Source: an uncultured Candidatus Saccharibacteria bacterium
GTDB lineage: Bacteria; Patescibacteriota; Minisyncoccia; Phycocordibacterales; DATDWN01
DNA length: 61,063 bases
Direction of reading: 5' to 3'
Assembly (NCBI GenBank): GCA_964603545.1
Contig: CAZRVD010000005.1
Coordinates: forward strand, 1-61,063
Positions 1-59,247 of the stretch are shown in pieces. Under the pieces are notes generated by a model that saw only the letters and a list, made by a program, of their open reading frames with translations, had not been told where the DNA came from and searched no databases. Both the position numbers and the translations under genes were made by a program. Numbering within the stretch: position 1 is the first letter of the stretch; each line of letters starts with the position of its first letter.

Positions 1-42
1 TTCAAGGCTGCAATCGGGGTTCGATTCCCCGTGAGGTCACCA
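1..42 (+). tRNA. 3' part of a tRNA gene cut by the window edge; isotype not determinable with confidence
   Basis: nt 15-31 form a canonical T-arm (CGGGG/TTCGATT/CCCCG). This is followed by acceptor strand TGAGGTC, discriminator A and an encoded CCA (40-42). If nt 1-3 (TTC) are the anticodon it would be tRNA-Glu, but the 5' half is outside the window. Confidence 0.7.
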
Positions 43-1720
43 TCAGGTTTTGATCGGGTACAAATCCCGAAGACAGTTCGAATACTAGCGACAATTTAGG
101 TGTTCCACTAACTATTTCTGGATAGGTGGGCATCTTCTCAAATACCAACCCAAACAGGTCCCGTAAAGAGCGCGGATCATCAGGGTTTAGTAACAATTCG
201 GCTGGGTGTTCCATTACGTATCTGGCATCTTTGATAAATGCCTTTATGTCATGCCTAGAGATCTGGATTTTATGCCGGACCCCCTGCGCTTCTTTGATTT
301 TTTTGTCACTCTCCTCGATTTCTCTCTCCAACTTTTCTCGAACAACAGCACTTTTAGTGGTCACAAGAACATCGAGTTTTGTGGCCTGCTCTGCTTCAAG
401 ATCTGCGATGTTTCGATGAATGTCACCCGAGGCTTTGACGATTTCCTTCTCACGCTGACGGTATTTATTCATAAACACCAGTTCAAGCGCATTGAGAACA
501 TCTGGCTGAAACTTCAGATTTGAGATGTACGCGTTTACAGCCTTTTCAAAATCCGCTTTCGGGATCCTGATTCCTTTGTGTTTGCGTGAGCAGTGATATG
601 CCGGGAACTTCTTTCCAGATTTACCTCGGGACGCACTCCCTAGAAATGGTTTTGAGCAACTAGGGCATAGAAGAAACTTGAATGGGTATAATGGGTTGTT
701 TCTTACCCTGACCTCGCCGGTTTTTGAAGATCTTTTTATCAACTCGAAACTTCCATCGGAGGCTTGTTTCAAAATCAATTTTCCGCGATTCGCTCTATTC
801 CAAAGATCAATGCTAACCAAGCCGTCATATTGCGCCTTGATAGGTTTGAAGTGTGTCCACAACTCACACATGACACCGGCATAGATTGGATTTTCTATGT
901 ATCTTTGAAATTGCTTTATGTTGAGGGGTTTGCCACCTCTTTTCGCGATAATCTCTGTATGTTCTTTGTTCCATCTGTTCCGGATCGGAGATTGGAAACC
1001 CATTGCATTTACTTGTGCGACACACTCCTCATCAGTTAGTCCACGAGCACGCAAGTCAAACATCGCTCGATAGAATTGTGCCCGATTCGGGTTTGGAACT
1101 TGAATAGTCTTTTTCTTTCCTTCCACGAATATCTTTTCGTTCTTGTATCCGTCGGAAGGTGAACGTGTACGATAACCCTGCTGCGCTAGCCGGATCTCTT
1201 GTCCTATCATGCGATGTAGAATCGTCGTCACTTCCTGTTTCGAAGTTGTTGCCAGCACATTTTCAGTGATCTCGCTCGGATAGAATCTACTCCAGTCGTA
1301 TTCGAAGCCGAGTTCTTCAAGAGTATTTATGGATGGCTGTATTACTCCGAGAGTATCGATCATCACCACACCGTATTTCAACAATTCCTTTTTCATTCGA
1401 TCATACTCACCGGTCCCTGCGCGAGTGAATCTGTCTATGGATTTGAATACATAATAGTTTACAAGTCCGGGATTTTCTTTTATGAAAGTGAGGACTTCTT
1501 CAAAGTCATCTCGATTAGTTTTTCGCCCTGAAATTGCACGGCCCCATACTTTCCCTTGCGGATACTCTTTTGTTTGTGGAACAATAGCCCACCCTCGGTC
1601 CAGTGCAAATCTGCGCAGACTCTCTTCCTGTCGCTCCAGACTTTCACCTTCACTCGACTGCTTGAGTGAACTGACACGACACTGCACTACGCATTTTTTA
1701 TTTTGTATTGATAAGTTCAT
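2..1720 (-). CDS. large serine recombinase (integrase), C-terminus runs off the window
   Basis: 572-aa ORF. N-terminal resolvase-type catalytic region (VVQCRVSSLKQ...ESLERQ), central recombinase region, Cys cluster CPSC...YHCSRKH (zinc-ribbon-like) and a coiled-coil-like C-terminal part. No stop codon before nt 2; the last codons overlap the tRNA 3' end. Confidence 0.85.
   Translation of the reverse strand: MNLSIQNKKCVVQCRVSSLKQSSEGESLERQEESLRRFALDRGWAIVPQTKEYPQGKVWGRAISGRKTNRDDFEEVLTFIKENPGLVNYYVFKSIDRFTRAGTGEYDRMKKELLKYGVVMIDTLGVIQPSINTLEELGFEYDWSRFYPSEITENVLATTSKQEVTTILHRMIGQEIRLAQQGYRTRSPSDGYKNEKIFVEGKKKTIQVPNPNRAQFYRAMFDLRARGLTDEECVAQVNAMGFQSPIRNRWNKEHTEIIAKRGGKPLNIKQFQRYIENPIYAGVMCELWTHFKPIKAQYDGLVSIDLWNRANRGKLILKQASDGSFELIKRSSKTGEVRVRNNPLYPFKFLLCPSCSKPFLGSASRGKSGKKFPAYHCSRKHKGIRIPKADFEKAVNAYISNLKFQPDVLNALELVFMNKYRQREKEIVKASGDIHRNIADLEAEQATKLDVLVTTKSAVVREKLEREIEESDKKIKEAQGVRHKIQISRHDIKAFIKDARYVMEHPAELLLNPDDPRSLRDLFGLVFEKMPTYPEIVSGTPKLSLVFELSSGFVPDQNLMVTSRGIEPRLQP
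18..40 (+). repeat. attL-like copy of tRNA T-loop/acceptor sequence GGTTCGATTCCCCGTGAGGTCAC
   Basis: Matches 7173-7194 except for one T indel and one C/T difference. Confidence 0.75.
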
Positions 1721-2794: not shown

Positions 2795-5596
2795 CTAGTC
2801 TTTAGGGTGTTCATCCTCGTACTCTTGTCGTTCCTCCCGCATTTCTCGTTCGTGTTCCTGTTCTGATCTCGCAATATCTTTTGCGAGATTAGCAAGAACT
2901 TTTTCGCAAAACTTTATTATCTTTGGATTAGTCGATTTCGATTTTACATCCTCGATACGTGCTTGATTTTTTCGCATCTCGCGCGCAAAAATGTTTTCAC
3001 CGACAGCACCAGTTCCTCCACCAGTCTGACGCATTCTGGCGTCCACTCTAGCCAAGATCTGTCTGTCATCCGTAACAGCGACGATCTCAAGACAAAGTGA
3101 CGGATCCGCTGGATCAGAGATAGGCAGCATCTCCATAACCTTGAGGATATTTTCCTTCTTACCTGTGGCGATCAGGTCCGAGAGAGCGCCGCGCAACACG
3201 TCACCCCCTACGCGGTTGAAGAACTCGCCGAGGTGATAACCGATCATGCTGTCTTGTTCAGGATCTCGTTCTTCGAGCCAACGGCGAACGACGTCTTTTG
3301 TTCGTGGATCGTCGCGTATGAAAGCCGCTACGCCGGGCTCAATGTGATATGGGATTGCGTCATATCCACTATCGTACGAGTGCTTTATCCGACGCTCAAA
3401 AACTAACATCATCAGATTGAAGTCGACAACCCCAAGTGCGTGGAGAACTTGCAACTCGTTGTGGTCTAGGCGCTTTATGTTGACGAGCATCTCGGCAAGT
3501 GTCTCGAGATCTGTACGGTCCCACTCCTCAAGTTTGATCCATTTACAATGCAGAGCAAAACCAAGTTCGTGAGGATACATCGTGTCGAGTTCGGGGTACT
3601 CCTTTATTTTTTCAATCAGTGCTTTCCGAATGTCTTTATCTAGGGTCGACAAAAATGCGAGTGATCGGATCGAGTGATACTCGAGCGCACGGTTGATTTC
3701 GTCGCTCTTGAGAAACGCGAAACGACCTACTTTTCTTGCGATCTCAAGTGTGATCGCTATATCTTCCTTGCGGATTTTAGCCACAGAGAGTTCCGTGCCA
3801 CCTACAGAAAAATAAGACATGAGGATTCCATCGATCTGATCTGTAAGGTGATGTTTTGCGATGTAGTCGACGTACTCGTCCCACTGATCGAGTGAGCCTT
3901 TCCGAAGACCCCAGAGTATGCCGCGAAAAAAGAAGTACAGGCCAGTCTTGCTCGTGAGAGCATGCTTCGCAAATACTGCGGCTACTTTCGGTTTCTTTTC
4001 TGCGATTTGAGCGAGGAAATCCCGCAGAGTTTGGTAGAGCCAGTCCTCAACACAGTCGCGAAAGTTGGCTACCGCGTTGATACGCGCATACCACTCTTCG
4101 GCGTTTTTTTCAGTAATCGATTCAAGAACCTCCTTCAGTTCCTCCTCTTTTTGCTGCCGTCCCTCTTGCCACTCCATATCGCGTCGCAAACGCATCTCGT
4201 CTCCGGCAAGGAGGCTAAATAGCCGATAATCGCCCTTGTTTTCACGGATTTGTTGAAGCAACTCCTCAACGCCAGAGATCTTACGCTCTCTCGTGTTCAA
4301 AATTGATAGTTGTGTTTCTATCTCGTAGACTACCGGATAGTCGGCGATCATTTTACTTTTCGGGAAAAGTATTTTTTTGTACGCGGCAACAACATGTTCG
4401 GTGTCGGCTTCTACCATGTCCACAGATCTTTGAAGAAAATCAGGATCTCCGGTCGGCCAGTCAGTCTTATGCGTCGCGTAACCGATTGTATCCACCGTTT
4501 TGCTTTTCTCACGTATCGTATCTGCTATCTCGTATCGCTTCGTCAGGAGATCTATCGCATCGCGACGTAACTTTTTCAAGAACTTTGTCGCGTCGAGTGC
4601 CCCACGATGAAAAGTGAGCGTGTACATGTCCGTCTGCGACGTTCCATCGAAGTCGGGGCTAAATAGGTTGCGGAGCATCTCATGCGCGATCTCTGACGGG
4701 ACATCATGGCTTGTGATGAAGTCGAGCATGGCTCGGTATGGGCCGTAGCCGATCGCATTTAGCCAGTGGTAGTTATATTTTGTAGTGTTTTTCAACGCTT
4801 CCGCTGCTTTCTTTCGAACTTGCTCGCTCTCATCGGAGGCGAGTTTTGTGATGACCTCCAATGCTTCGGCCGTCTTGTCGTGAATGACCTGCTCGAGCAA
4901 CTCAATGTATGCGATTTTGACTAAAGCAGAGGTGCCACCGATCGTTCGCGCCATGTCGAGTACGATTTCAACTAGCGGGAACTCACCCTTGTTCGTTCGG
5001 TAATAAACGAGATCATGGAGAGTGCGGATTCGCTCGAGTAGAGTGTCCTCGTTGGCAGTTATGAGATTTTTCCTGACGCGCTTTTTGTATCGCAACGCGA
5101 GTCGATCGTTCGAAGTGTTCCGGTGATGCCCGCAAATACGTTTCCACTCTGCCACGTATGCGGCGGCGCCTTTTTTGATGGTGTGATTTTTGTTGAGACG
5201 AAAAGTGATCGTTTTCTTACCTGCAGAGACCTGTGCCTCGTACTGTGTCTTTACAGATTCCGGTGCTAAATACATCCAGTAAGCGACTTGCTCGTCCGGA
5301 TTCACGGCGATAAGAAATACAGGTATTGAAGATCCGTGCGCATGGCTCAAAAGATCGGTGCTACAAGTCGCAGAAAGAGAACCGTCTTTGTTTGTCTTGA
5401 GGGGTTTTATTTGCACCTTCAGCATGTTCCCACCAACCTCGTCTTGTTCGCCAAGTAGATGGACATACCCGTCGATTAGCGGAAAATCATCATCTCCTTT
5501 GGTGAGTTGCGTGAGCAGAGGGTGTGCATTCAGAAGAGTCTCCAGTACACCGATCTCTTGCTTTTCGGTTCTTTTGGCGCGACTGTATTTTGCCAT
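2795..5596 (-). CDS. 933-aa protein: N-terminal DUF4365/Mrr-like PD-(D/E)xK nuclease-like module fused to a long alpha-helical HEAT/ARM-like region
   Basis: Long uninterrupted ORF. The N-terminus LIDGYVHLLGEQDEVGGNMLKVQIKP resembles (from memory) the D...E/D...QxK core of DUF4365-type restriction-endonuclease-like domains. HEAT-like stretch ESEQVRKKAAEALKN. No P-loop seen. Confidence 0.6.
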   Translation of the reverse strand: MAKYSRAKRTEKQEIGVLETLLNAHPLLTQLTKGDDDFPLIDGYVHLLGEQDEVGGNMLKVQIKPLKTNKDGSLSATCSTDLLSHAHGSSIPVFLIAVNPDEQVAYWMYLAPESVKTQYEAQVSAGKKTITFRLNKNHTIKKGAAAYVAEWKRICGHHRNTSNDRLALRYKKRVRKNLITANEDTLLERIRTLHDLVYYRTNKGEFPLVEIVLDMARTIGGTSALVKIAYIELLEQVIHDKTAEALEVITKLASDESEQVRKKAAEALKNTTKYNYHWLNAIGYGPYRAMLDFITSHDVPSEIAHEMLRNLFSPDFDGTSQTDMYTLTFHRGALDATKFLKKLRRDAIDLLTKRYEIADTIREKSKTVDTIGYATHKTDWPTGDPDFLQRSVDMVEADTEHVVAAYKKILFPKSKMIADYPVVYEIETQLSILNTRERKISGVEELLQQIRENKGDYRLFSLLAGDEMRLRRDMEWQEGRQQKEEELKEVLESITEKNAEEWYARINAVANFRDCVEDWLYQTLRDFLAQIAEKKPKVAAVFAKHALTSKTGLYFFFRGILWGLRKGSLDQWDEYVDYIAKHHLTDQIDGILMSYFSVGGTELSVAKIRKEDIAITLEIARKVGRFAFLKSDEINRALEYHSIRSLAFLSTLDKDIRKALIEKIKEYPELDTMYPHELGFALHCKWIKLEEWDRTDLETLAEMLVNIKRLDHNELQVLHALGVVDFNLMMLVFERRIKHSYDSGYDAIPYHIEPGVAAFIRDDPRTKDVVRRWLEERDPEQDSMIGYHLGEFFNRVGGDVLRGALSDLIATGKKENILKVMEMLPISDPADPSLCLEIVAVTDDRQILARVDARMRQTGGGTGAVGENIFAREMRKNQARIEDVKSKSTNPKIIKFCEKVLANLAKDIARSEQEHEREMREERQEYEDEHPKD

Positions 5597-5654
5597 GAAT
5601 AAATCATACTCTTTTCATAAAAAATATGCTTATTTTCCAAGCCGCTTCACCTAT

Positions 5655-5683
5655 TTGACATAAACACTATAAGATGTTAGAAT
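5655..5683 (+). promoter_or_regulatory. sigma70-like promoter of GC-rich cassette 1
   Basis: TTGACA (5655-5660), 17-nt spacer, TAGAAT (5678-5683). About 80 nt upstream of the ATG at 5764. Confidence 0.55.
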
Positions 5684-5763
5684 AGCCATAGGAGTTTGTT
5701 TGGGGCTAACGCTAGGCGTTTCCCTTTGAAAGTAACCATCAACCGAAGAAAGAGAGGCACTGA

Positions 5764-6351
5764 ATGAACGCTCAACTCACGTGGGATGCGGTCCTTGCGA
5801 ACAAGGCCCTCATCGGCGGCGACATCGAGTCGCAGGAAGACGGCGTCGCTTACCGCGGCCCGATCGCGGAGATCAAGGTGGAAGGTGACTCCGTTCGCTT
5901 CAACTCGCCGTGGTGCGCCCGGATGAACCCGGACACCGGCGAGTGGGAGAAGTGGCACATCACCACCTCGTCCGTCAGCAAGAGCATGGTGCAACCGCAG
6001 GACATCGGCGACGGGAGGATCTTCTTCCAGATGCCGTTCCTCGGCGTCTGCACGATTTTCCCGAACGGCGGCAGCAAACTCGACACCCGCAAGGTGAAGG
6101 GCCTGCCGAAGGATTCGGAGCGCTTTCTCGCTCTGTTTCCGGATCTGCGCTTCGACCGCGCGATCGCCGAGAAAGTGCTCGTCGAGAAGTCGTTCTCACG
6201 GGCGGCTGAATCCTTCAAGGACAAGCCGGCCGACGCGACGCTGCAAGACTTGCTCGGCTGTTTCAAGCACGACAGCCAGGCCGAGGAGTTCCTCTGGCAC
6301 TACGTCGAAGCCGTCACCGGCGAGAAGGAAGTGCACCAGAAGGTGTACTGA
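5764..6351 (+). CDS. hypothetical protein, strongly GC-rich (cassette 1)
   Basis: 195-aa ORF with G/C-ending codons (GGC GAC ATC GAG TCG CAG...). Purine-rich AGAGAGG lies 6 nt upstream of the ATG. The high GC creates several shadow ORFs in other frames. No recognised domain. Confidence 0.7.
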   Translation: MNAQLTWDAVLANKALIGGDIESQEDGVAYRGPIAEIKVEGDSVRFNSPWCARMNPDTGEWEKWHITTSSVSKSMVQPQDIGDGRIFFQMPFLGVCTIFPNGGSKLDTRKVKGLPKDSERFLALFPDLRFDRAIAEKVLVEKSFSRAAESFKDKPADATLQDLLGCFKHDSQAEEFLWHYVEAVTGEKEVHQKVY

Positions 6352-6862
6352 TGTTGGTTGGAATGTCGTGTGATCTGGGGGTGCGTGTGGAGAAATCCGC
6401 ATGCACCTCTTTTGTTTTTCTTCTAGTAACGGCAATGGAGCGCTGATACAGAAGCAGTGTTTCTTTTTGCTCGATCTCAACTTTTGGAGTGGACTCCTCT
6501 GCAAAGAAAAGTGCCATATCCCATTTCAGTATTGAGTTTGCGGCTGCTATGCGATCCGCAAACGTCGGACCGGATTCTCCGTTGAGAATTGTGGCAAGTT
6601 TTTGCGTAATAAATCGATGTCGCTCTTTGAGACTTACCAACCTCTCTGTTCGACTTTGAGTAGAAAGTTCTTCGAGGTTTTCTATGCGGACCTTTTTCAG
6701 CAGTCTTGAGACATAGTGCCAGTCGAGTTCGCCTCGGAGTGATTGGTATCCTTGTCGATACAGAGAATTGCGAACTTGCGCCACCGACTTGAGAGGATAG
6801 AGTGCTACTTCATCGCGGATCGCTCGCTTGATCAGTTCTTCAATTTCTTTTGGCTTTCTCAT
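6314..6862 (-). CDS. hypothetical protein (island); 3' end probably altered or extended by cassette 1
   Basis: 182-aa ORF. The last ~35 codons run antisense through the cassette-1 terminator and CDS end and look non-native (low-complexity P/S/T/R tail). Confidence 0.5.
   Translation of the reverse strand: MRKPKEIEELIKRAIRDEVALYPLKSVAQVRNSLYRQGYQSLRGELDWHYVSRLLKKVRIENLEELSTQSRTERLVSLKERHRFITQKLATILNGESGPTFADRIAAANSILKWDMALFFAEESTPKVEIEQKETLLLYQRSIAVTRRKTKEVHADFSTRTPRSHDIPTNISTPSGALPSRR
6380..6420 (+). terminator. intrinsic terminator of cassette 1
   Basis: GGTGCGTG...CATGCACC stem (one G-U pair) followed by TCTTTTGTTTTTC. Confidence 0.6.
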
Positions 6863-7051
6863 GTTCGTGCTTATTCGTGGTTTTGCGCGCTCGCTACATA
6901 CAGTTCAATACCCCATAAGGTAAGATCTTTTCTAGTTTGTAAGTATGAAAAGTGGCTAAATAGCATGGGTTTCTGGTACCATTAGATAACTCGGATTGAG
7001 GGTCTGAAACACCGTTTTCCATTTCAATACTAGGTTTTCAATGGTGTTCCA

Positions 7052-7073
7052 TTCAAATCCCTCCGGGCTCACA
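7052..7073 (+). repeat. second tRNA-3'-end-like fragment inside the island right arm
   Basis: TTCAAAT-CCCTC-CGGGCTC-A looks like T-loop + T-stem 3' strand + acceptor strand. No intact tRNA can be folded around it. Confidence 0.4.
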
Positions 7074-7172
7074 TTTTTCATTTTGAAAAAAGTCTAAGGG
7101 GATCGAAGCCCGATTGAGATTTTTTAAGAACAAAGTGAATTAAAAATCCAATTGGGGTACTGACCGAGTAGC

Positions 7173-7199: not shown

Positions 7200-8390
7200 A
7201 TGAAAATCTTATCAATAGAAACCAGCTGCGATGAAACAGCAGTTAGTATTGTAGAGGCAACAGGTGGACTAGAATCCCCTACTTTTTCTGTACTTGGAAA
7301 CGCCATTTTTTCCCAAATTAAAACTCACACACAATATGGTGGAGTTTTCCCGATGATGGCAAAAAGAGAGCACGCAAAGAACCTTCCAAAACTCTTAAAA
7401 GTGGTTCTTGAACAAACTAAAGAATTCATATCATACGATATATCGTATGATATGAATAAGTGGCAAGAGATAGAAGATATTTTGAAGAGAGAAGATGGAT
7501 TATTTGAGGAACTTAAAAAAACTATTGAAAAAATAAAAAAACCGGATATTGATTTGATTGCAGTGACTTCAGGTCCAGGATTAGAACCAGCACTATGGGT
7601 AGGAATAAGTTTTGCAGTGGCCCTTGGAAAACTTTGGGACTTACCAGTAGTTCCTGCAAATCATATGGAAGGACACATTGCTTCTATCTTAATAAACGAA
7701 GATAAAACCCCTGTTGAATTTCCAGCTTTAGCTCTTCTTATTTCTGGAGGTCACACAGAAATTGTAGAAATAGAAAATTGGGGTAGTTACAAAATACTAG
7801 GTTCTACGGTGGATGACGCTGTTGGAGAAGCTTTTGATAAAGTGGCGAGACTTTTAGGACTTCCTTATCCAGGTGGTCCAGAAATTTCAAAGTTAGCAGA
7901 AAGAGCTCGATTAGAGGATGTTTCCAAAATAGCCAAATTTCCAAGGCCGATGATACATTCCAAAAACCTTAATTTCTCTTTTTCTGGGCTAAAAACAGCC
8001 GTTTTATACTATATTAGAGATAACTTTGAAGGAAAAACTGAGAATATAAGTGAGAACGAAAAAGCAGACATTGCTCGTGAGTTTGAAGACTCTGTTGTGG
8101 AAGTTCTAGTCCACAAAGTTGAAACTGTTTTAGAAAGCAATAACATTAGAACTCTTATTGTAGCTGGAGGAGTTATTGCTAACAAAAAAATTAGAGAAGC
8201 TTTTGCGGAACTTGCAAATAAATTTGAAGGACTCACTTTAAAAACCCCAACAAAAGAGTTATCCACAGACAACAGTATTATGATTGCCTGCGCCACATAC
8301 ATAAAAACCTTAGTATTTCCTGAATTAATTTCAAAAAATAATAAAATAATTGCGGAAGGAAATTTGAAATTAAAATATGAAATGTTATAA
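7200..8390 (+). CDS. tsaD: tRNA N6-adenosine threonylcarbamoyltransferase TsaD (Kae1/Gcp family)
   Basis: MKILSIETSCDETAVSIVE, HMEGH and VAGGVIANKK motifs. Start taken at ATG 7200 rather than the GTG at 7185, which lies inside the att repeat. Contains a ~50-aa insertion relative to typical TsaD. Confidence 0.9.
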   Translation: MKILSIETSCDETAVSIVEATGGLESPTFSVLGNAIFSQIKTHTQYGGVFPMMAKREHAKNLPKLLKVVLEQTKEFISYDISYDMNKWQEIEDILKREDGLFEELKKTIEKIKKPDIDLIAVTSGPGLEPALWVGISFAVALGKLWDLPVVPANHMEGHIASILINEDKTPVEFPALALLISGGHTEIVEIENWGSYKILGSTVDDAVGEAFDKVARLLGLPYPGGPEISKLAERARLEDVSKIAKFPRPMIHSKNLNFSFSGLKTAVLYYIRDNFEGKTENISENEKADIAREFEDSVVEVLVHKVETVLESNNIRTLIVAGGVIANKKIREAFAELANKFEGLTLKTPTKELSTDNSIMIACATYIKTLVFPELISKNNKIIAEGNLKLKYEML

Positions 8391-8405
8391 TATAGCTGGA
8401 GGTAC

Positions 8406-8446
8406 AAAAAGGAAAAGACCCGCACAATGTGGGTCTTTTCCTTTTT
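8406..8446. terminator. bidirectional intrinsic terminator between tsaD and the surface-protein gene
   Basis: GGAAAAGACCC...GGGTCTTTTCC stem flanked by an A-run and a T-run. Confidence 0.7.
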
Positions 8447-8461
8447 ACTATCCTTTTTAGT

Positions 8462-11400
8462 TTATTCTAGGTCTATTTGTTTATTTATCTCTTCTATTTT
8501 TTTGTTGTTCCAATATTCTCTATACCAGAGATACGAAACCAAAATAATAACTAGTATCAGAATGATGTTTAACCAGCCCAATCCAAGATAAGTATTAGGA
8601 CACTGTAAAGAATCGTCTACAGAAGATTTAAATGGCCAACCAAGTAAACCTAGTAAGTAGTTCGCGAATTTCTTTCCAGAAGCTATCACGTTAGCTGTCA
8701 GTCCAGAAACAAAACTCTGAGTTGTAGATGAATACCCAGCTAAAGTCCCCTGTAGACCATTGGTTCCAGTTGAATCATCACTTCCTACCTGCCCATCTAT
8801 TATTGGATTAGAAGGATTAGAAGGATTTACTGGAGTTATACCACCGTCTGGTAACAGAATTCCAGAATCTCGGAGTCCTTGTAGGAAGTTTCTATATGTA
8901 TCAATCTCTGTTTGCTGCCCAGGTGTTACTGGAAAAGCCATTCTACAATATATTTCGTTTACTTTCTTTTTAGTAAGGATGTATGTGTAAGAAGTAGCTT
9001 CTGTGTGTCCCCATGGAGTTAAAATATCTGATTTGTATCTTTCTTGGAAAGCGTCTAACGCAACTATTGTTTGATCATCATAGATACCAGTAATTTGTAC
9101 GTTACTGTATCCTTCTAAATCTCTCAAAAATACCTGAAGCTTTTTAACTTCTACGGGATTATTGTTGAAATCTTTTCTTAAGTAGTCGTATAAGTAGTAA
9201 CAACTATTTGGAATTTCTACCGGCTGTTGAACAAGTGGTCCACCACTAGAGGTTAGTGAGCCAACTATAGGACCGTTTCCACCCCCACCACCTCCACCAC
9301 CACCTCCGCCACCGCAATTAGAAGTACAAGGTGCTGGGTTTACATTCAAATCTACAGAGGACGTATTGTTTGTTGCTACTGGGTCCGCCTGAGTAGATGA
9401 GGCAATAGCTGTGTTTGTTATTTTTTGTCCTTCTGTGCCAGCGTTTACAGTTGCAACAATTGTTAAGGTTGTTGTGGCATTATTATTAGATAAGATTCCT
9501 ATTGTCCAAATACCAGTTGTTGTAGAGAAACTACCAACAGTAGACGTGCTTGATACAAGAGTTAATGTATTTGGAAGTAAATCAGTTAGAGTCACAGCTG
9601 GGGCATCATTTGGTCCCTTATTTAGTAAACTTATTATATAAGTTATCGTATCCCCAACGCTGGCAGTAGTTTTGTCAGATGTCTTTGTAACTTGCAAATC
9701 AGAAGATGGGTCTCCACCACCGCCCGCAGTAACAGTAATTACCAAAGTCTCTGAATCAAAACCGCAAGTATTTACGGCATTTAGTTCTACGTTATAAGTT
9801 CCTGCTACTGTTGGTACCCCACTCAATACGCTTGTAGTGGTTGCATAAGATAGCCAAGCAGGAAGTGTAGTTGTTCCTACTGACAAAATCACATCTGTTG
9901 TGGAACTAGCAGTAAGTGTATACGAAAATTGATTCCCCGCTACAACGCTAAGAGACAAAGGCGAAGTGATTGTAGGAAGTAAACATTGCTCTTCAGGATT
10001 GTATGTACTTAGCAACACAACAGTTCTTTCTCTCCTGTTCTCTGTCAAAGAAACACTTCCGTCAGAGTTCATACCACCAGCGGTACTTTTATACAAAAAC
10101 AAGTCAAAAATATTGTTTACTGGTTGAGTAGATTGATCATTATATTTAGCAACATTCCACGCTAGTCCATTAATAGCAAGTTCTGAATATTTATAATTAC
10201 CTAACTCTAGATTAGAAAAAGTTACACAATCTGCATCATTTACAGATGAAGATATTATTTTTGAATTAGGTAGAAATGCAGACGAAGTCCAAGTCTTAGA
10301 ATTAATAGTTGTGGAAGCAAAACTTGTTGAAGTTGCTAAGTTAATAGAGAAGGAACCGTTAGGTAGTGCGTACGATGATGTGGCTATTACATTCTGAGTA
10401 TCAGCAACCATCATACAGAAAGTTATCTTTCCTTTTAGTGTTGGTTCTACCTCAAGGACATTTACTGTCCTTGAAACCTGAGTTGCCTTTAATCCTTGTG
10501 AGTCGCTTACGTTATAAGTAACAACGTAACTTCCAGGAATACTTGTGTTGACAGTACTTGAAGCAACAATATTTGCTGTAATGTCTCCATCTTCCTGATC
10601 AAGAGCCGTTGCTCCAGGGTCAATATAAGTATTTCCAACATTCACACTTGCGGGGTTTGCTCCTATGAGTGTAATGACTGGTGGATGATTTTCTTCTTCT
10701 ATGTTCTCGCAAGATGTTACTGTTACTTGAACAACAACATCATTATAATCTTTGTCTGAAATAGCTAAGGCTAGATTTTCAAAAGCAAGCACGTATGAAC
10801 CAGTGTTAGATTCTGAACCAGCAGAATCTAACACATCGTATGAAACCATATGATCATTATCCCCTTCATTTAATGAATTCTCTGATGCTTGAAGATTATT
10901 CAAGGCGCCGTTTTGCACAGCAAAGCCGTAATCTCCATCTGGTAGTGTTACTGTATAAATTTGGCCAGGAGTTGCTGTTGCAACATTAGGATAAGCTTCA
11001 TTTGGACCACTTCCAGATTTAAACAGTGGCACAAAGGTATTTAACTCACCCTTTTTGTAATATCCAAATATATCCCCCGCAGCTGAATAGCCAGCAATAA
11101 ACTTAATTTGTACTGTTGTAGATTCTTTAGTTGTACTCCATACTTGATACTCTTTTTGAGGAGAAACGGAAAGTCCAGCAGTATTGATTATGTTCTCCAA
11201 GGTAGGTTCTGGACTTGTTCCAAAAACAACATGGTCCACATCTCCCAAAGTATCTGGAACGAGACATTGATTTTCTACAGGTTCTTCCTCTGGGACATTC
11301 CAAGCAACACAATGATATGTTTTACCCGCAACTGTTGGTACCAACCAATCATAGTTATCATAATGTAAAACGTCAGTATCGCAGTATAGTTCTGCGGATA

Positions 11401-12682
11401 CAGCTAGGGTAGTATTAACTCCAGTAAATGGAATGTAATTTGGTTTAAATTGTTCACGAACCCAGATTCTATCTCCAAGTGGTAATGTAGTAGTTCCGGT
11501 AAAAGGAAACCAGTTCCCGCCAGCAACTCCAACACTATCTCCGGGATTATCTGAACCATTTCCTTCCTTCACCCATTCGAAAACCCACGGTGCTAAGTGA
11601 CAGTTGGGATGATTTGCTAAAAATAAAGAAGCTGTGGTGCTAGATATTTGGTGCCCGCTAGCTCCCCAATTTGGCAAATCTGCCTCAGAATCACAAACTA
11701 TTTTTGTAGTGGAAACAATTGCTGTGTTCGACTGGTCAGGAGGAACAACCTCAACAACTCTTTCAACTTCTTCAGCTTTAAGACCTTTAGAGTCAGAAAC
11801 ATTGTATTCTATTGCGTAAGAACCAACAACACTAGCATTAACATTATCAGTCGAAACAATATTTTCTGTTATATCACCGTCCTCAAAGTCTGTAGCCGTT
11901 GCACCTGGATCTATAAATAAACTATTAACAGTTATTATGTATGGATTTGCTCCTACCAAAGTAATGACTGGTCGGTGATTTTCAACTTCTACGTTTTCAC
12001 AAGACGTTACTGTTACTTGAACAACAACATCATTGTAATCTTTGTCTGAGATAGATAGAGCTAGGTTTTCAAAACCTAGTAAGTATGAACCAGAATCTAC
12101 ATTTTCATTAGAACCCAATACTCCATATGAGGCCATGTGGTCATTACCACCTTCATTTAATGAATTCTCTGATGCCTGAAGATTATTTAAAGCACCATTT
12201 TGTATAGCAAAACCATAATCTCCACCTGGTAGTGTGACTGTATAAATCTGACCAGGAGTTGCTGTTGCAACATTAGGATAAGCTTCGTTTGTACCACTTC
12301 CAGATTTAAATAGTGGTACGAAAGTATTTAAATCACCCTTTTTGTAATATCCAAATATATCTCCTGAAGCTGAATAACCGTTAATGAATTTAATCTGTAC
12401 CGTTGTAGATGCTTTAGTAGTACCCCACACTTGATACTCTTTTTGAGAGGTAACAGAAAGTCCTGAAGTATTAATTATACTTTCAAGAGTAGGTTCTGGA
12501 CTTGTTCCAAAAACAATATGATCCTCATCACCTAAAGTGGCTGGAACGATACATTGGTTTTGAACATATTCAGAATCATTAGACAAAATTTCTGAATTTG
12601 CAGAGGCTAAAGAAGGTACTAGACCAGAAAAATTTGAGAGTAGTAGGGCGGTGATCAGAATGTTAGTAAATATTTTTTTCAT
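8462..12682 (-). CDS. 1406-aa secreted/anchored multidomain surface protein
   Basis: N-terminal signal-like helix. Two copies of a ~270-aa module ending in DKDYNDVVVQVTV (DUF4114-like) plus an Ig-like domain (PVITL.GANP...DPGATA.D.EDGDIT). Also a cadherin/He_PIG-like Ig domain (LPAWLSY...LSGVPT), a DUF11-like repeat (DLQVTKT...GDTITY), a G12 linker, a PG_binding_1-like segment (VKKLQVFLRDLEGY...) and a C-terminal TM helix. Confidence 0.85.
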   Translation of the reverse strand: MKKIFTNILITALLLSNFSGLVPSLASANSEILSNDSEYVQNQCIVPATLGDEDHIVFGTSPEPTLESIINTSGLSVTSQKEYQVWGTTKASTTVQIKFINGYSASGDIFGYYKKGDLNTFVPLFKSGSGTNEAYPNVATATPGQIYTVTLPGGDYGFAIQNGALNNLQASENSLNEGGNDHMASYGVLGSNENVDSGSYLLGFENLALSISDKDYNDVVVQVTVTSCENVEVENHRPVITLVGANPYIITVNSLFIDPGATATDFEDGDITENIVSTDNVNASVVGSYAIEYNVSDSKGLKAEEVERVVEVVPPDQSNTAIVSTTKIVCDSEADLPNWGASGHQISSTTASLFLANHPNCHLAPWVFEWVKEGNGSDNPGDSVGVAGGNWFPFTGTTTLPLGDRIWVREQFKPNYIPFTGVNTTLAVSAELYCDTDVLHYDNYDWLVPTVAGKTYHCVAWNVPEEEPVENQCLVPDTLGDVDHVVFGTSPEPTLENIINTAGLSVSPQKEYQVWSTTKESTTVQIKFIAGYSAAGDIFGYYKKGELNTFVPLFKSGSGPNEAYPNVATATPGQIYTVTLPDGDYGFAVQNGALNNLQASENSLNEGDNDHMVSYDVLDSAGSESNTGSYVLAFENLALAISDKDYNDVVVQVTVTSCENIEEENHPPVITLIGANPASVNVGNTYIDPGATALDQEDGDITANIVASSTVNTSIPGSYVVTYNVSDSQGLKATQVSRTVNVLEVEPTLKGKITFCMMVADTQNVIATSSYALPNGSFSINLATSTSFASTTINSKTWTSSAFLPNSKIISSSVNDADCVTFSNLELGNYKYSELAINGLAWNVAKYNDQSTQPVNNIFDLFLYKSTAGGMNSDGSVSLTENRRERTVVLLSTYNPEEQCLLPTITSPLSLSVVAGNQFSYTLTASSTTDVILSVGTTTLPAWLSYATTTSVLSGVPTVAGTYNVELNAVNTCGFDSETLVITVTAGGGGDPSSDLQVTKTSDKTTASVGDTITYIISLLNKGPNDAPAVTLTDLLPNTLTLVSSTSTVGSFSTTTGIWTIGILSNNNATTTLTIVATVNAGTEGQKITNTAIASSTQADPVATNNTSSVDLNVNPAPCTSNCGGGGGGGGGGGGNGPIVGSLTSSGGPLVQQPVEIPNSCYYLYDYLRKDFNNNPVEVKKLQVFLRDLEGYSNVQITGIYDDQTIVALDAFQERYKSDILTPWGHTEATSYTYILTKKKVNEIYCRMAFPVTPGQQTEIDTYRNFLQGLRDSGILLPDGGITPVNPSNPSNPIIDGQVGSDDSTGTNGLQGTLAGYSSTTQSFVSGLTANVIASGKKFANYLLGLLGWPFKSSVDDSLQCPNTYLGLGWLNIILILVIILVSYLWYREYWNNKKIEEINKQIDLE
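10460..11272 (-). repeat. copy 2 of the internal 813-bp duplicated module of the surface-protein gene
   Basis: aa 471-741 align with aa 42-312. DNA stretches such as 10711-10790 vs 12001-12080 are near-identical. Confidence 0.85.
11747..12559 (-). repeat. copy 1 of the internal 813-bp duplicated module
   Basis: Offset between the copies is 1287 nt (429 codons). Confidence 0.85.
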
Positions 12683-29376: not shown

Positions 29377-30201
29377 CTATTTCCACTCCGTCTCCAAGTA
29401 TTCTTTTAAAGCAACTTTCCAATGTCTAGAGGTTGATATTTTAGAAATCATGCCTTCGTTGTATGTTCGGAATGCATCCATTTTGAAATCGCTCATTTTA
29501 ACTGGTAGAACTTTTGTTTTCTTTCCTAATATTTTTACTATAGCTTCTGCAAATTCATATCTTGAACAAACTCCTTTTCCAGCTAGGTTATGTATCCCCC
29601 TGCTATCCTCTTTCAAAAGTTTTTTTATTCCAGCGACTAAATCCTTGCCAAAAGTCGGCGAACCTATTTGGTCTGTAACCACTTTGATTTCTTTACCATC
29701 AAGTTGTTTGATTATTTTCGCCACAAATTTTTGGTCTTTCTCTGGACCACCTCCAAACATCCAGCATACTCTTGCAATGACGTAGTCTTTTAACATGCCT
29801 TGTATAGCTAATTCTCCCAAATGTTTTGTTCTTCCATAATAATTTGTTGGATTTGGAATATCTTTTTCTGTGTAAGAAGTCTTTTTCGTTCCATCAAAAA
29901 CACCCGCTGTAGAAACGTAGACTAGTTTAATTCCAAGTTCTTTGGCAACGAGAGCCATGTGGTAAGTACCAACCGCGTTAACCATATAAGCATGTTCAGA
30001 GTCTCTTTCACATCTATCAACATCTGTTTCGGCAGCGAGGTGAACTATGGCCGATGGTTTGTATTTTCTACAAACAGCCTGAACTTCCTTAAGGTCCGTT
30101 ACATCAAGTGATCGCCTGTTTGTCTTTATGCCAAAATCTACGTAACTTCCAACCATACCGTCGCTACCCGTTACCAGAACTTTGTTTAAGTCTATTTTCA
30201 T
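29377..30201 (-). CDS. rfbD: dTDP-4-dehydrorhamnose reductase-like NAD(P)-dependent sugar reductase
   Basis: VLVTGSDGMVGSYV Rossmann motif, IVHLAAETDVDRCERD, 274 aa. Confidence 0.7.
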   Translation of the reverse strand: MKIDLNKVLVTGSDGMVGSYVDFGIKTNRRSLDVTDLKEVQAVCRKYKPSAIVHLAAETDVDRCERDSEHAYMVNAVGTYHMALVAKELGIKLVYVSTAGVFDGTKKTSYTEKDIPNPTNYYGRTKHLGELAIQGMLKDYVIARVCWMFGGGPEKDQKFVAKIIKQLDGKEIKVVTDQIGSPTFGKDLVAGIKKLLKEDSRGIHNLAGKGVCSRYEFAEAIVKILGKKTKVLPVKMSDFKMDAFRTYNEGMISKISTSRHWKVALKEYLETEWK

Positions 30202-30282
30202 AAAATGAATTATCTCTTAAGTACAAACATTATCAAATCTCACTAATATTATCAATTTCTGATTTAAATTTTTGAAACAAAA

Positions 30283-30328
30283 AAACAGCAGGCCGGAGGG
30301 GGTGAATTCACCCCTCCATTCCCGCTGG
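30283..30328 (-). terminator. intrinsic terminator of GC-rich cassette 2
   Basis: Minus strand: CAGCGGG..GGAGGGGTG-AATT-CACCCCCTCC..CCTGCTG followed by TTTTTTTG. Confidence 0.7.
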
Positions 30329-30356
30329 TAGCTCGTGAGCTCAGGGAGACCCTTGT

Positions 30357-30941
30357 TCAGACCTTTCCGTGGAACTCACCGTAGTATGGCATGGCGCCAT
30401 TCAGCATCACGTTGATGGCCATCTGGAGGTAGAATCTGTTTGAGGGAACCATGGCTACTTCCCCCAACCGGCTGACCGGAACCCAGTCACGTCGATACTC
30501 ACCGTCTTGTATTGTTGCCGGCCGACCCGGCAACAATCTGGCGAATACCACGACATAAGCGTGATCACGTTTGGTGTGTGGTGAGACTCCCAGACCACAG
30601 AATCTGAAGTCTCCAGCAATCGTTGGAATGTAGGACTCTTCCGCGCAGTGACGCTCAAAAAGTCCTTGGAGAACATCCCCGGTCATAACGGTAAACCCTT
30701 GGGTACCGTACATGCTGGGAAAGTGTGGATCGTCGGGAGGCCTCAAATCGAGAAGAACCTCCCACCCGGTGCCATCAGCCGACGGACAGAACTCTACGCA
30801 CTCGTGGTGCACTGTTGGGAAGGTTTTCAATCTTTCCCAGTAGATAGAAGCAGGAAGATACCCACCCTGCTTTCTAATCCACTGAAACACTTCAACGAGC
30901 AACGCCTCTCTTTCGCCCTGCTCCATCTTTTCCAGTTCCAC
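30357..30941 (-). CDS. hypothetical GC-rich protein (cassette 2); weak degenerate Nudix-box-like stretch
   Basis: ORF 30357..30956. GTG at 30941 is preferred because GGAGG lies 8 nt upstream. The stretch GDVLQGLFERHCAEESYI loosely resembles the Nudix box (Ex7REUxEExGU) but lacks several invariant residues. Confidence 0.65.
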   Translation of the reverse strand: MELEKMEQGEREALLVEVFQWIRKQGGYLPASIYWERLKTFPTVHHECVEFCPSADGTGWEVLLDLRPPDDPHFPSMYGTQGFTVMTGDVLQGLFERHCAEESYIPTIAGDFRFCGLGVSPHTKRDHAYVVVFARLLPGRPATIQDGEYRRDWVPVSRLGEVAMVPSNRFYLQMAINVMLNGAMPYYGEFHGKV

Positions 30942-30958
30942 CTGAATAACCTCCAATC

Positions 30959-30976
30959 AGCACGAAATCTCGTGCT
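30959..30976 (-). promoter_or_regulatory. 7-bp hairpin in the cassette-2 5' leader immediately upstream of its SD
   Basis: AGCACGA-(4 nt)-TCGTGCT. Confidence 0.4.
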
Positions 30977-30987
30977 TCCTGGCACAA

Positions 30988-31016
30988 AAATAACACACTA
31001 AATACTAGTTTGTCAA
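30988..31016 (-). promoter_or_regulatory. putative promoter of cassette 2
   Basis: Minus strand: TTGACA (31016-31011), 17-nt spacer, weak -10 TTATTT. Confidence 0.4.
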
Positions 31017-31021: not shown

Positions 31022-31735
31022 TTATTTTTTCTTACTTTTCTCCACCGCCCAGTTAATAGAATTAACCATTGAATCAAAAGTCCCAGCATCAGACCAGAAA
31101 CCATCTACCATTTCCGCTTTCATGGTTCCGGCTTTTACGTATGCATTGTTTACATCTGTCAGCTCAAGCTCCCCTCTCCAAGAAGGTTTTAATTTTTTTA
31201 TAATATCAAAAACTTTATTGTCGTATTGATACAGTCCAGTTGTAACAAAATTTGATTCTGGTTTCTTTGGCTTTTCAACAATTTTAATAATTTTATTACC
31301 TTTTAGAGTTGCTACACCAAATCTTTCTGGATCAGGCACCTCTTTCAAAAAAACTTTTGCTCCTTTTTTAAAACTTGAAAGCTCTGATTTAAAATTATCT
31401 TCATAAATGTTGTCTCCAAGAATAACAGTCATTGGCCCGCCATCAGCAAAGTCTTCTGCTAAGAGAAGTGCGTGAGCAATACCTCCTGCCTGTACCTGAA
31501 CTTTATATGTAAATTTTACTCCATAGTCCGAACCAGAACCTAAATACTCCACAAAGTCCCCCGCGTGCTCTCTTCCAGAAACTATGAGTATATCCTTGAT
31601 CCCTGCCTGAAGAAGAACCCGCAGTGGATACTCAATCATTGCCTTGTCAAAAATAGGGAGTAAATGTTTGTTTGTAATTTTTGTAAGTGGTAGAAGTCTT
31701 GTCCCCTTACCCCCAGCCAATATAATTCCTTTCAT
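31022..31735 (-). CDS. sugar-1-phosphate nucleotidylyltransferase (short-form glucose-1-phosphate thymidylyltransferase-like)
   Basis: MKGIILAGGKGTRLLPLT signature; 237 aa; directly downstream of rfbB. Confidence 0.8.
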   Translation of the reverse strand: MKGIILAGGKGTRLLPLTKITNKHLLPIFDKAMIEYPLRVLLQAGIKDILIVSGREHAGDFVEYLGSGSDYGVKFTYKVQVQAGGIAHALLLAEDFADGGPMTVILGDNIYEDNFKSELSSFKKGAKVFLKEVPDPERFGVATLKGNKIIKIVEKPKKPESNFVTTGLYQYDNKVFDIIKKLKPSWRGELELTDVNNAYVKAGTMKAEMVDGFWSDAGTFDSMVNSINWAVEKSKKK

Positions 31736-46926: not shown

Positions 46927-46955
46927 TTGCTTTTTGTGGCAATATGTGATACAAT
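46927..46955 (+). promoter_or_regulatory. sigma70-like promoter of GC-rich cassette 3
   Basis: TTGCTT (46927-46932), 17-nt spacer, TACAAT (46950-46955). GAGGAGG SD at 46963-46969. Confidence 0.55.
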
Positions 46956-46976
46956 TATCGTAGAGGAGGTGGAGAA

Positions 46977-47579
46977 ATGCTCGTTGACTGGCTTGCCAAT
47001 AAGTGGGCCGTTAACGACCCACTCCCACACAGATGCGATCTGTTGGTCCCCGTCGCCCATGGAGCAACTTCAGATAGGCTGACCTGTGGCGCAGAGTCCG
47101 TAGCCCGCAAAACAGTTGAAATCCGTTCGCAACTGCGGGGTATCGGACAACTCCCGTATTTGGTTTTTGGAGCCTTTACTGGATCCGAAAAACCCGAACT
47201 GGAGAAAGTCGAGAAACACAAGATCTTCAGAACAGGAAAGTATGTTGGCACGGTCATTAGCACAATTGAGGAGTGCCTGAAGGTGAAGAGAAATCTTCCC
47301 GATGGGTTTACTCCAAGAAACATTGTGGTTGTGACCGATGAAGCTCACTCCAGGCGGTGTCGTATTGTGTGGCGAACTTTCTTCCCACAATCCAACGTGA
47401 AAATGATATCGGTAAAGTTGTCCGATGCGATCGACGCCAAAAGTCCAATGACTGCGTATGGTAACCCTTGGAAGGCTTTGTTCTTTCAAGCAGGGCCGAC
47501 GCCAGTGTACTGGCTGTTCAGCCGTGGTGGAGCGAAATGCCTTTCGAGGCTATCGCATCTACACACACCGACTAAGTAA
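46977..47579 (+). CDS. DUF218/YdcF-like protein, GC-rich (cassette 3)
   Basis: 200 aa; IVVVTDEAHSRRCRIVWRTFFP resembles the conserved VTS..H..R segment of DUF218 (ElyC/YdcF) proteins. Strong SD 7 nt upstream of the ATG. Confidence 0.7.
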   Translation: MLVDWLANKWAVNDPLPHRCDLLVPVAHGATSDRLTCGAESVARKTVEIRSQLRGIGQLPYLVFGAFTGSEKPELEKVEKHKIFRTGKYVGTVISTIEECLKVKRNLPDGFTPRNIVVVTDEAHSRRCRIVWRTFFPQSNVKMISVKLSDAIDAKSPMTAYGNPWKALFFQAGPTPVYWLFSRGGAKCLSRLSHLHTPTK

Positions 47580-47582
47580 CCC

Positions 47583-47621
47583 CGAGCCCCCGTCACAGCG
47601 ACGTGGGGCTCGTTCTTTTTT
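47583..47621 (+). terminator. intrinsic terminator of cassette 3
   Basis: CGAGCCCC-CGTC..GACG-GGGGCTCG followed by TTCTTTTTT. Overlaps the stop of the convergent methyltransferase gene. Confidence 0.75.
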
Positions 47622-59023: not shown

Positions 59024-59100
59024 GCGCGCATAGCTCAGTTGGCTAGAGCAATCGACTGATACTCGGTAGGTCCCAGGTTCGAATCCTGGTGCGCGCACCA
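59024..59100 (+). tRNA. tRNA-Ile (anticodon GAT), CCA encoded
   Basis: GCGCGCA TA GCTC AGTTGGCTA GAGC A ATCGA CTGATAC TCGGT AGGTC CCAGG TTCGAAT CCTGG TGCGCGC A CCA (77 nt). Confidence 0.92.
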
Positions 59101-59131: not shown

Positions 59132-59136
59132 CTTAC

Positions 59137-59207
59137 TGGTGCGAGCCGGAGCGCGACGGCGCGAGGCCGGGTCGGGAAAGTTTTTAGTAAAAAACTATTC
59201 CTGACCA
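59137..59207 (+). repeat. structured repeat copy E at the left border of GC-rich cassette 4
   Basis: Starts with TGGTGCG (same as tRNA-Ile 59089-59095). Then CCGGA-GCGC-GACG-GCGC-GAGGCCGGGTCGGG-hairpin-TCCTGACCA, collinear with minus-strand copy B and carrying compensatory GCCC/GGGC -> GCGC/GCGC changes. Confidence 0.65.
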
Positions 59208-59247
59208 CAAGACGAATATTTTAACAAACGGAAAGGGTGGCCGACTC

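Follow-up and report, generated by a model that had tools for sequence, protein, structure and literature searches.

GC-rich, Shine–Dalgarno-led segments in an AT-rich genome without an anti-Shine–Dalgarno sequence: probably neither one class of element nor all recent acquisitions

The stretch of DNA analyzed here, referred to as the window, comprises the 61,063 nucleotides of contig CAZRVD010000005.1 and harbors five GC-rich segments, designated C1 to C5 in window order, within AT-rich DNA. An earlier note, made from the letters of the window, had described them as self-contained expression cassettes, each with a promoter, a Shine–Dalgarno (SD) motif, one or two short open reading frames (ORFs) and a terminator, placed in gaps between genes. 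The analysis revealed units of greater age and heterogeneity than that note proposed. On sequence grounds, the host genome is that of a bacterium of the candidate phyla radiation (CPR) belonging to the Parcubacteria; a resident glycosyltransferase clusters at ≥90% identity with proteins of 'Parcubacteria group bacterium', and the nearest named relative at the C3 locus is Parcubacteria bacterium C7867-003. Contigs or loci of relatives are denoted below by L and a number.

The composition of the background was determined from 485 intervals of 600 bp between window positions 7 and 58.8 kb, which showed a GC content of 0.350 ± 0.030 with a maximum of 0.452. All five segments (C1, 0.578; C2, 0.525; C3, 0.505; C4, 0.502; C5, 0.459) exceeded every background interval (z = 3.7–7.7), and their tetranucleotide distances of 0.61–0.84 lay beyond the control maximum of 0.454. 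The GC content at third codon positions (GC3) was 0.87 for the ORF of C1, 0.59 for C2, 0.54 for C3, 0.70 and 0.52 for the two ORFs of C4 (C4a and C4b), and 0.67 for C5, compared with 0.20–0.35 in resident genes. The description of GC-rich segments in AT-rich DNA was thus borne out by all three measures. The same held for the statement that resident genes lack an SD, as none was present before the ∼40 resident genes examined, and a correctly spaced GGAGG-type SD ahead of a complete ORF was found only in the five segments.

A −35/−10 pair followed by a hairpin and a T-run was observed in C1, C2, C3, C4a, and C5. Promoter-like hexamer pairs occur at chance level in this AT-rich DNA (47 found vs. 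47.1 expected), and hence the promoters are credible only where they are conserved in homologues; the expression signals are kept in homologues of C1 and C3. The promoters and terminators of the earlier description were recovered at their positions, with the qualification that the −35 of C3 is TTGCTT, the −10 of C2 is poor, and C4b has no terminator of its own. Likewise, each other unit fits an intergenic gap, but C5 is contained in an intervening sequence that interrupts the 16S rRNA gene. As judged from these signals, the five segments look like autonomous transcription units, each with a promoter of the sigma-70 type, and expression is predicted for each.

Sharp GC steps in a metagenome-assembled source could possibly arise from an assembly chimera or from contamination by co-assembled GC-rich organisms. 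The window was therefore compared with contigs of three assemblies: the NCBI assembly GCA_007376085.1 was 99.994% identical to it across 16.3 kb, a Logan contig from SRR8863434 was 100% identical over 1.3 kb including all of C1, and an ENA contig was 100% identical to the final 13.6 kb. The junctions of the units were the same in the NCBI, Logan, and ENA assemblies (99.99–100% identity across them), which argues that they are not chimeric. Moreover, the units fit intergenic gaps and independent genomes carry orthologous islands at the same loci, leaving this explanation with practically no probability.

The window includes the 3′ end of the 16S rRNA gene.

60150–60297, minus strand: 3′ terminal part of the 16S rRNA gene, from CCGCCCGTCA through helix 45, by alignment to the E. 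coli 16S 3′ end.

Helix 45 is intact and is followed by the tail AAUAAUUCAAUU where AUCACCUCCUUA is expected. No CCUCC anti-SD was found at the 16S 3′ end or up to 300 nt downstream. This is in agreement with the absence of the anti-SD in about half of the Parcubacteria (PMC9297842), and hence the SD-less state of the genome is real and its cause is known. Canonical 16S pairing cannot be the reason why an SD is kept in the five segments. The pentamers AATAA and ATAAA were strongly enriched in the 25 nt upstream of start codons (18 of 39 resident genes vs. ∼3 expected from coding sequence). A re-coded SD matching the new 16S tail was considered and rejected, since these enriched 5-mers are not complementary to the tail; they appear to represent an A-rich leader. 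Bacteroidia are also SD-poor, with few SD-led genes such as rpsU, and keep the anti-SD in their 16S. The likeness to the present genome lies in an SD-independent regime with rare conserved SD-led exceptions; the 16S differs in that here it has no anti-SD.

C1 lies in an island of 44–49% GC that carries a serine recombinase.

5655–5683, plus strand: C1 promoter, with TTGACA at 5655–5660, a 17-nt spacer and TAGAAT at 5678–5683, as read from the sequence.
5684–5763, plus strand: C1 5′ leader, with the SD-like GAGAGG at 5752–5757, 6 nt before the ATG.
5764–6351, plus strand: C1 coding sequence for a conserved uncharacterized two-domain protein of 195 aa (GC 0.619, GC3 0.87).
6376–6420, plus strand: C1 intrinsic terminator, a 15-bp stem at 6376–6409 followed by a T-run, identified by folding and conserved in L003.
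2–1720, minus strand: large serine recombinase (Pfam Resolvase, Recombinase, Zn_ribbon_recom) of the island.
6314–6862, minus strand: neighbouring ORF of 182 aa, whose last ∼36 codons (6314–6420) run antisense through the 3′ end of C1 and its terminator.

The C1 protein had been regarded as an orphan; it proved to have ∼50 homologues of conserved length at 41–89% identity, with an invariant C-terminal EEFLWxY...KVY motif in the alignment. The −35 box and the bases that follow it are conserved in L003 and L009, and an SD was found in all seven homologues examined. Comparison with L003 indicated purifying selection (dN, nonsynonymous divergence, 0.05; dS, synonymous divergence, ∼0.6–0.7; dN/dS ∼0.07). 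The AlphaFold model, with a mean predicted local distance difference test (pLDDT) score of 94, showed a beta-rich N domain and a helical C domain. No match to a PDB or viral structure was obtained at E ≤ 1e-3, the sole structural resemblance of the N domain being a weak, Sm-like one. The N domain is also found alone, and the C domain is fused to a different N-terminal region in a Moranbacteria genome.

C1 and its counterpart in L003 share ∼90% nucleotide identity from the −35 box to the terminator T-run. The homology starts at CCTATTTGACA (CCTAT), 5 nt upstream of the −35, and ends in the T-run; on L003, which has 47% GC, the neighbours are different and the flanks unrelated. The family is scattered over Saccharibacteria, Moranbacteria, Parcubacteria, and mid-GC bacteria including one 54%-GC contig. 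In L009 (Saccharibacteria metagenome-assembled genome contig CAZQUI010000002.1, 36% GC), the homologue is 64% identical, has 62% GC and the same TTGACATAAACA promoter, and is bordered on both sides (5098–5661 and 6819–7088) by fragments akin to the C-terminus of the serine recombinase of the window, a hint that recombinase islands carry C1 along or serve as sites of its insertion. L013 retains a decayed remnant, consisting of only the last 33 codons and the terminator. The same block in an unrelated context, the scattered homologues and the remnant in L013 together identify C1 as a mobile unit that has been transferred as a whole. The earlier observation that C1 had rewritten the 3′ end of the ORF at 6314–6862 was confirmed, as its last ∼36 codons are antisense cassette DNA; by tblastn, its residues 148–178 match antisense C1 DNA at sites in L013 and L003 that carry no corresponding ORF. 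Neither terminal repeats nor target duplications were found at the ends of C1.

The earlier note had known of no described class of element with this architecture. The phage moron, a unit with its own promoter and terminator and a deviant GC content (Juhala/Hendrix; Cumby, Davidson and Maxwell 2012, PMC3594210), is a described analogue. C1 resembles a moron in being an independent unit located between genes, with a GC content unlike that of its neighbours, horizontal spread, and boundaries at the −35 and the terminator. The architecture is shared, by predicted signals, with C2, C3, C4a, and C5, and the GC deviation with all five segments. Morons are, however, defined in (pro)phage genomes by presence or absence between collinear relatives. 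The contexts of C1 differ between genomes and no empty site was recovered, no phage genes were recognisable in the C1 serine-recombinase island, and no relatives of the units were detected among PHROG, IMG/VR or GenBank phage sequences (tblastn). C2 and C3 differ further from morons in being present in all nine relatives recovered, so that they are not extra DNA. Thus, C1 could be classified as a horizontally mobile, moron-like single-gene unit nested in a serine-recombinase island.

The island contains other features. A full-length LOOT RNA (Rfam RF03000; 72 bits vs. a gathering score of 46) is located at 2153–2272 on the plus strand, directly upstream of an ORF at 2339–2767, and AGGAGG precedes the internal GTG of that ORF at 2495. 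Divergent from C1, at 2795–5596 on the minus strand, is the gene of a 933-aa protein with an N-terminal DUF4365 (restriction-endonuclease-like) and HEAT repeats. It matches PADLOC Aga_REase-PNTD1-PNTD2 (E 3e-8) and may be a defence protein.

C2 is located between rmlA (31022–31735) and rmlD (29377–30201), in an operon of the order rmlB-rmlA-[C2]-rmlD-C-methyltransferase.

30280–31016, minus strand: C2 unit, with the −35 TTGACA at 31011–31016, a leader hairpin at 30960–30975 and the SD GGAGG at 30950–30954.
30357–30929 (ATG) or 30357–30941 (GTG), minus strand: C2 ORF.
30296–30318, minus strand: terminator hairpin of C2, with the T-run to 30280.

The slot is identical in three relatives, with homologues at 58 and 49% identity, and the orthologues likewise retain a promoter and SD motifs. 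In one of the relatives, the mid-GC L007, the synteny is the same and the orthologue is not compositionally anomalous. The structure model of the C2 protein (pLDDT 84) gave 202 Foldseek matches in the PDB at E ≤ 1e-3 (best E 6e-7, probability 1.0), the top ones being the MUTYH C-terminal domain, NrtR, MTH1, and GDP-mannose mannosyl hydrolase, with TM-scores up to 0.59 (query-normalised) and 0.71 (target-normalised). The protein is, by its model, of the Nudix fold. No Pfam NUDIX match was obtained and the Nudix box GX5EX7REUXEEXGU is not present; in the family alignment the box is degenerate, with a remnant R-x3-E-E and E97 as the sole invariant residue. The position between rmlA and rmlD raised the possibility of a non-orthologous RmlC, which was rejected as the fold is Nudix and not cupin.

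C3 lies between a PMT_2 glycosyltransferase gene and a methyltransferase-GT2-GT1-GtrA block, and its direction of transcription is opposite to that of these neighbours.

46927–47621, plus strand: C3 unit, with the −35 TTGCTT at 46927–46932, an extended −10 TGTGATACAAT ending at 46955 and the SD GAGGAGG at 46963–46969.
46977–47579, plus strand: C3 ORF for a DUF218-like protein of 200 aa.
47584–47611, plus strand: C3 terminator, followed by a T-run.

The Pfam domain DUF218 (PF02698) was matched by 18 of 23 members of the family (best E 6e-7); the protein of the window itself scored 17.7 bits (E 0.0035), below the gathering score of 27.6. Profile search revealed no solved structure for C3, and among Pfam, NCBIfam, PHROGs, and PADLOC the only match of any cassette protein was this weak DUF218 hit. 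Hence, C3 probably encodes a divergent DUF218 protein of the YdcF/SanA/ElyC-like kind. The slot PMT_2-[C3]-methyltransferase-GT2 is found in L020, L022, L023, L026, and a 79-kb contig carrying protein P0071; the sixth relative, Parcubacteria C7867-003, has the slot with one neighbour changed. In all six orthologues the −35, the extended −10 and the terminator are kept, the leader is short, and the SD reads GGAGGTG, AAGGAGGA or AGAGGTG.

C2 and C3 thus occupy the same slots in nine of nine relatives recovered (three for C2, six for C3), down to 49% amino-acid identity. In AT-rich relatives, the orthologues are again GC islands, with 47–54% GC against a background of 32–42%. Synonymous sites are saturated between the orthologues, as they are in the flanking genes, and GC3 stays at 0.46–0.62; between relatives, C3 has diverged in step with the genes on either side. 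Over 20 loci of three families, gene GC (0.47–0.62) was independent of host GC (0.32–0.54), with a slope of 0.12 that was not significant. The same locus and the saturated synonymous sites indicate that C2 and C3 are not recent acquisitions, and the independence from host GC together with saturation indicates that the anomaly is an equilibrium property and not the trace of an un-ameliorated transfer. Partial amelioration of an ancient transfer was rejected as well, as synonymous sites are saturated and yet GC3 remains at 0.46–0.62. It is likely that C2 and C3 are old, fixed, and functional genes of the cell-envelope glycan clusters of the clade, with a GC content that is maintained and intrinsic to the families. 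The earlier note had held that conservation at the same loci across the lineage, with no anomaly once computed, would overturn its proposal; for C2 and C3 the loci are indeed conserved, and the anomaly persists.

These data bear on the proposal that all five units are recent, independent acquisitions from higher-GC, SD-using donors, with traits not yet ameliorated. Their codon-position GC resembles that of ordinary genes of 50–65% GC genomes, an SD is useless to a ribosome without an anti-SD, and C1 did move as a unit. Single-gene horizontal gene transfer (HGT) is documented, mostly among Patescibacteria/CPR lineages (PMC12455944), and the presence of the C1 family in Saccharibacteria, Moranbacteria, and Parcubacteria is similar. 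The same study leads one to expect that old transfers blend compositionally, and C2 and C3 do not, despite saturated divergence. Their locus is fixed in every relative recovered, with divergence congruent with the flanks; a transfer so old should have ameliorated, and gene GC does not track host GC. No evidence was found for a non-CPR host as the donor of C2 or C3, as had been suggested. Single-gene acquisition stands for C1. C2 and C3 are not recent acquisitions, and as an explanation of all five the proposal is unlikely.

Another possibility is xenologous replacement from mid-GC relatives of the same gene order, perhaps with GC-biased gene conversion at hot spots of recombination, which would keep the slots GC-rich. 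Such a relative exists (L007), and C2 and C3 show a slight excess of shared synonymous codons over expectation and over some flanks. Glycan clusters are, moreover, classical targets of recombination. However, the GC boundaries are sharp at promoter and terminator and do not spread into the flanks that would supply the homology, the distances between relatives match those of the flanks, and dS is saturated. Replacement also leaves the excess of folding under codon permutation, described below, unexplained, and it is considered doubtful.

In Enterobacteria, O-antigen and capsule clusters have an atypical GC content, usually low, over the whole cluster, which persists lineage-wide. The persistence of a compositional anomaly in surface-glycan loci is a feature in common; in the present genome it concerns one gene per cluster, of high GC, with its own promoter, SD, and terminator.

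The folding of the transcripts was evaluated against dinucleotide shuffles and against synonymous-codon permutation, which preserves protein and codon usage. The coding sequences of the six C3 orthologues gave z values of −4.3, −5.7, −6.5, −3.2, −6.5, and −3.5 against dinucleotide shuffles, compared with −2.3 to +1.3 for 21 resident, island, and mid-GC control genes. Under synonymous-codon permutation the values were −2.7, −6.0, −4.0, −1.1, −6.1, and −3.0 (five control genes, −1.65 to +0.33), and the consensus fold of the C3 codon alignment had z = −6.8 vs. column-shuffled alignments, with +0.4 for the flanking methyltransferase gene and −1.1 for the flanking GT2 gene. These observations suggested selection on nucleic-acid structure in C3. 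The claim is confined to excess structure; a conserved specific RNA fold was not demonstrated, the covariation term of RNAalifold being positive. Codon permutation also gave z values of −2.4 to −3.0 for C1 and −3.3 for the window copy of C2. As the excess is strong and consistent only in C3, selection on structure is not a general explanation; selection for a folded transcript would be the best explanation for C3, and only a partial one for C1 and C2.

The two remaining segments lie at the end of the window. C4 is located between tRNA-Ile (59024–59100) and the 3′ end of the 16S gene, and C5 is antisense in the middle of an insertion in that gene.

59137–59967, minus strand: C4, with a bidirectional hairpin at 59936–59967, the promoter TTGACT-17-TATAAT at 59931–59903 and the SD GGAGGA.
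59612–59854, minus strand: C4a ORF, hydrophobic protein of 80 aa, with a terminator at 59592–59567.
59248–59517, minus strand: C4b ORF, 89 aa.
60298–61053, minus strand: intervening sequence of ∼755 nt in the 16S rRNA gene, between ...CTTGTAC(TCA) and CCGCCCGTC.
60496–60800, plus strand: C5, with perfect 18-nt inverted repeats TCCAGCACTAATTTTTGG at 60496–60513 and 60783–60800.
Within C5, plus strand: TTGACA-17-CATCAT at 60530–60558, AGGAGG at 60576–60581, a predicted 59-codon ORF at 60589–60768, and a hairpin with T-run at 60751–60783.

The C4 promoter is the best match in the region and the internal terminator is strong; the terminators of C4a and C5 were the top two in a 16-kb scan. Among 1.8 billion representative proteins, C4b had no homologue except for a repeat match in one giant protein (P0085, 3862 aa), in which 30 separate stretches match C4b residues 26–58, and the C4 ORFs had no relatives among IMG/VR or GenBank phages. 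C4 is an orphan two-ORF unit beside rRNA and tRNA genes. The 3′ end of tRNA-Ile (CTGGTGCGCGC, 59086–59096) is imperfectly repeated 50 nt downstream (CTGGTGCGAGC, 59136–59146), at the edge of C4. The tRNA gene as an integration site of C4 was considered and rejected, the 11-nt partial repeat being insignificant and too short for an att site.

The insertion that contains C5 splits the 16S gene in the universally conserved 1390–1400 region, and all assemblies end at the same place inside it. Its RNA is strongly folded (z = −7.7). In the fold of the minus strand, the inverted repeats of C5 pair with each other in the stem that closes one domain of the insertion, and the 'terminator' of C5 is one hairpin of the insertion. 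Rfam gave only weak, sub-threshold group-II D1-D4 matches on C5 and the insertion, and no endonuclease ORF was found in the insertion. Insertion-containing rRNAs of CPR bacteria have been treated previously (PMC9297842). Like rRNA intervening sequences and introns, the insertion around C5 is long and structured, interrupts a conserved part of the 16S gene and contains a domain closed by a stem; unlike introns, it matches no Rfam intron family at threshold, and its sole ORF is short and antisense, with no homing-endonuclease domain. Rather than an expression cassette, C5 most likely represents a domain, closed by a stem, of the structured 16S intervening sequence.

GC-rich islands in AT-rich genomes are often structured non-coding RNA genes, and the segments could be viewed as such, with ORFs that are incidental or secondary. 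The strongly negative folding z values of C3 and of the C5-containing insertion agree with this, as does a segment GC content similar to that of the tRNA and rRNA of the genome. Against it, C1, C2, and C3 have length-conserved ORFs with dN far below dS, confident protein models, the Nudix fold, and matches to DUF218, and no Rfam family was matched. An RNA function is plausible only for C5 and, perhaps in addition to coding, for C3; for the segments as a whole it is quite improbable.

The common architecture of promoter, SD, short ORF, and terminator had also suggested a single unfamiliar class of mobile cassettes moved by dedicated machinery. The boundaries of C1 match its expression signals exactly and a serine recombinase is nearby, which speaks for such a class. 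However, the five segments share no common sequence, boundary motif, terminal repeats or target duplications, and their proteins are mutually unrelated, so that neither the cassette-mobilising mechanism nor the shared boundary motifs envisaged earlier could be substantiated. C2 and C3 are immobile across the clade, inverted repeats occur only in C5, where they are explained as an RNA stem, and no recombinase is found near C2–C5. This proposal is thus very improbable.

Comparison with known elements was in agreement. Integron cassettes consist of a promoterless ORF and attC, arrayed next to intI/attI; the units described here have their own promoters and mutually dissimilar 3′ hairpins trailed by T-runs, and are scattered rather than arrayed. 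The sole recombinase in the window is of the serine type, with no tyrosine integrase. C1–C4 have no terminal inverted or direct repeats of the kind expected of insertion sequences or miniature inverted-repeat transposable elements; C5 has its 18-nt inverted repeats, but is present in a single copy in the window, with no flanking duplication and no transposase. Free-standing homing endonuclease genes have in common with the units only a conserved slot next to a conserved gene, as Pfam and NCBIfam revealed no nuclease domain and C2 and C3 are Nudix- and DUF218-like, respectively.

Three further observations concern the window and other contigs. The ORF at 8462–12682 (1406 aa, no Pfam domain recorded) contains a segment of ∼620 bp twice, at 10653–11274 and 11943–12561, with 84% identity. 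On L003, a CPR-like and largely SD-less contig, two small ORFs (8191–8418 and 9134–9463) have a strong SD and one of them a raised GC3 of 0.70; small ORFs led by an SD may be more widespread in genomes of this kind. On L004 (GCA_040384425.1), a single ORF of >2285 aa at 18198–20627 has RpoB and RpoC Pfam domains, indicating a fused rpoBC gene.

Taken together, the five units are best divided into three groups, a reading given a probability of about one half: C1 as a moron-like transfer, C2 and C3 as old genes of maintained GC content, and C4 and C5 as an orphan unit and a domain of a 16S insertion, respectively. The C1 block, from −35 to T-run, would have moved between CPR genomes and landed in the serine-recombinase island, replacing the 3′ end of the adjacent ORF; it may have been joined by illegitimate recombination or carried as cargo of the island. 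C2 in the dTDP-sugar operon and C3 in the PMT_2/GT2 cluster would have been kept GC-rich across saturating divergence, and in C3, less clearly in C1 and C2, synonymous codons appear to be arranged for extra-stable folding of the transcript. The most likely maintaining force would be selection for a strongly folded and presumably long-lived or tightly controlled mRNA.

Several points weigh against this division. No empty site was found for any unit, the insertion of C1 being deduced from differences of context only, and the C1 dS of ∼0.6–0.7 between the window and L003 implies that the transfer was not very recent. There is no relative with which to compare C4 or C5, and expression is predicted throughout. 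No excess of folding was present in the C2 orthologues of L006 and L007 (z ∼ −0.7) or in the C1 homologues of L009 (z −0.95) and L015 (z +0.4), and in the six C3 sequences the covariation term of RNAalifold was net positive, with few compensatory pairs. Nor does this division account for the conservation of SD motifs in a lineage that lacks the anti-SD.

A more speculative idea, tentative and rather unlikely, is that Parcubacteria without an anti-SD keep a small set of genes (C3, perhaps C2 and C1) in a separate expression regime, characterized by a consensus sigma-70 promoter, a conserved leader with an SD-like GGAGG, a strong terminator, and an mRNA that is GC-rich and strongly folded. In that case the canonical 16S tail would not be the reader of the SD-like motif and the structure; this part could fall to a protein, to a different segment of rRNA, to an intramolecular switch or, at the most speculative end, to another cell's translation machinery. 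GC-richness would then be a selected property of the transcript rather than a trace of foreign origin. No description was found of genes that are GC-rich and SD-led, and highly folded in the case of C3, persisting at fixed loci over saturating divergence in genomes lacking the anti-SD.

GC-rich islands with foreign-looking signals are routinely scored as recent HGT, which in this window is right for one unit and wrong for two. SD-led genes persist, and are conserved, in a genome without an anti-SD, at least one of them with synonymous-site evidence for selection on mRNA structure, which offers a testable entry point into translation initiation and mRNA stability in CPR bacteria that lack the anti-SD. 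Promoter-to-terminator units of the moron-like kind appear to circulate among CPR chromosomes outside recognisable phages.

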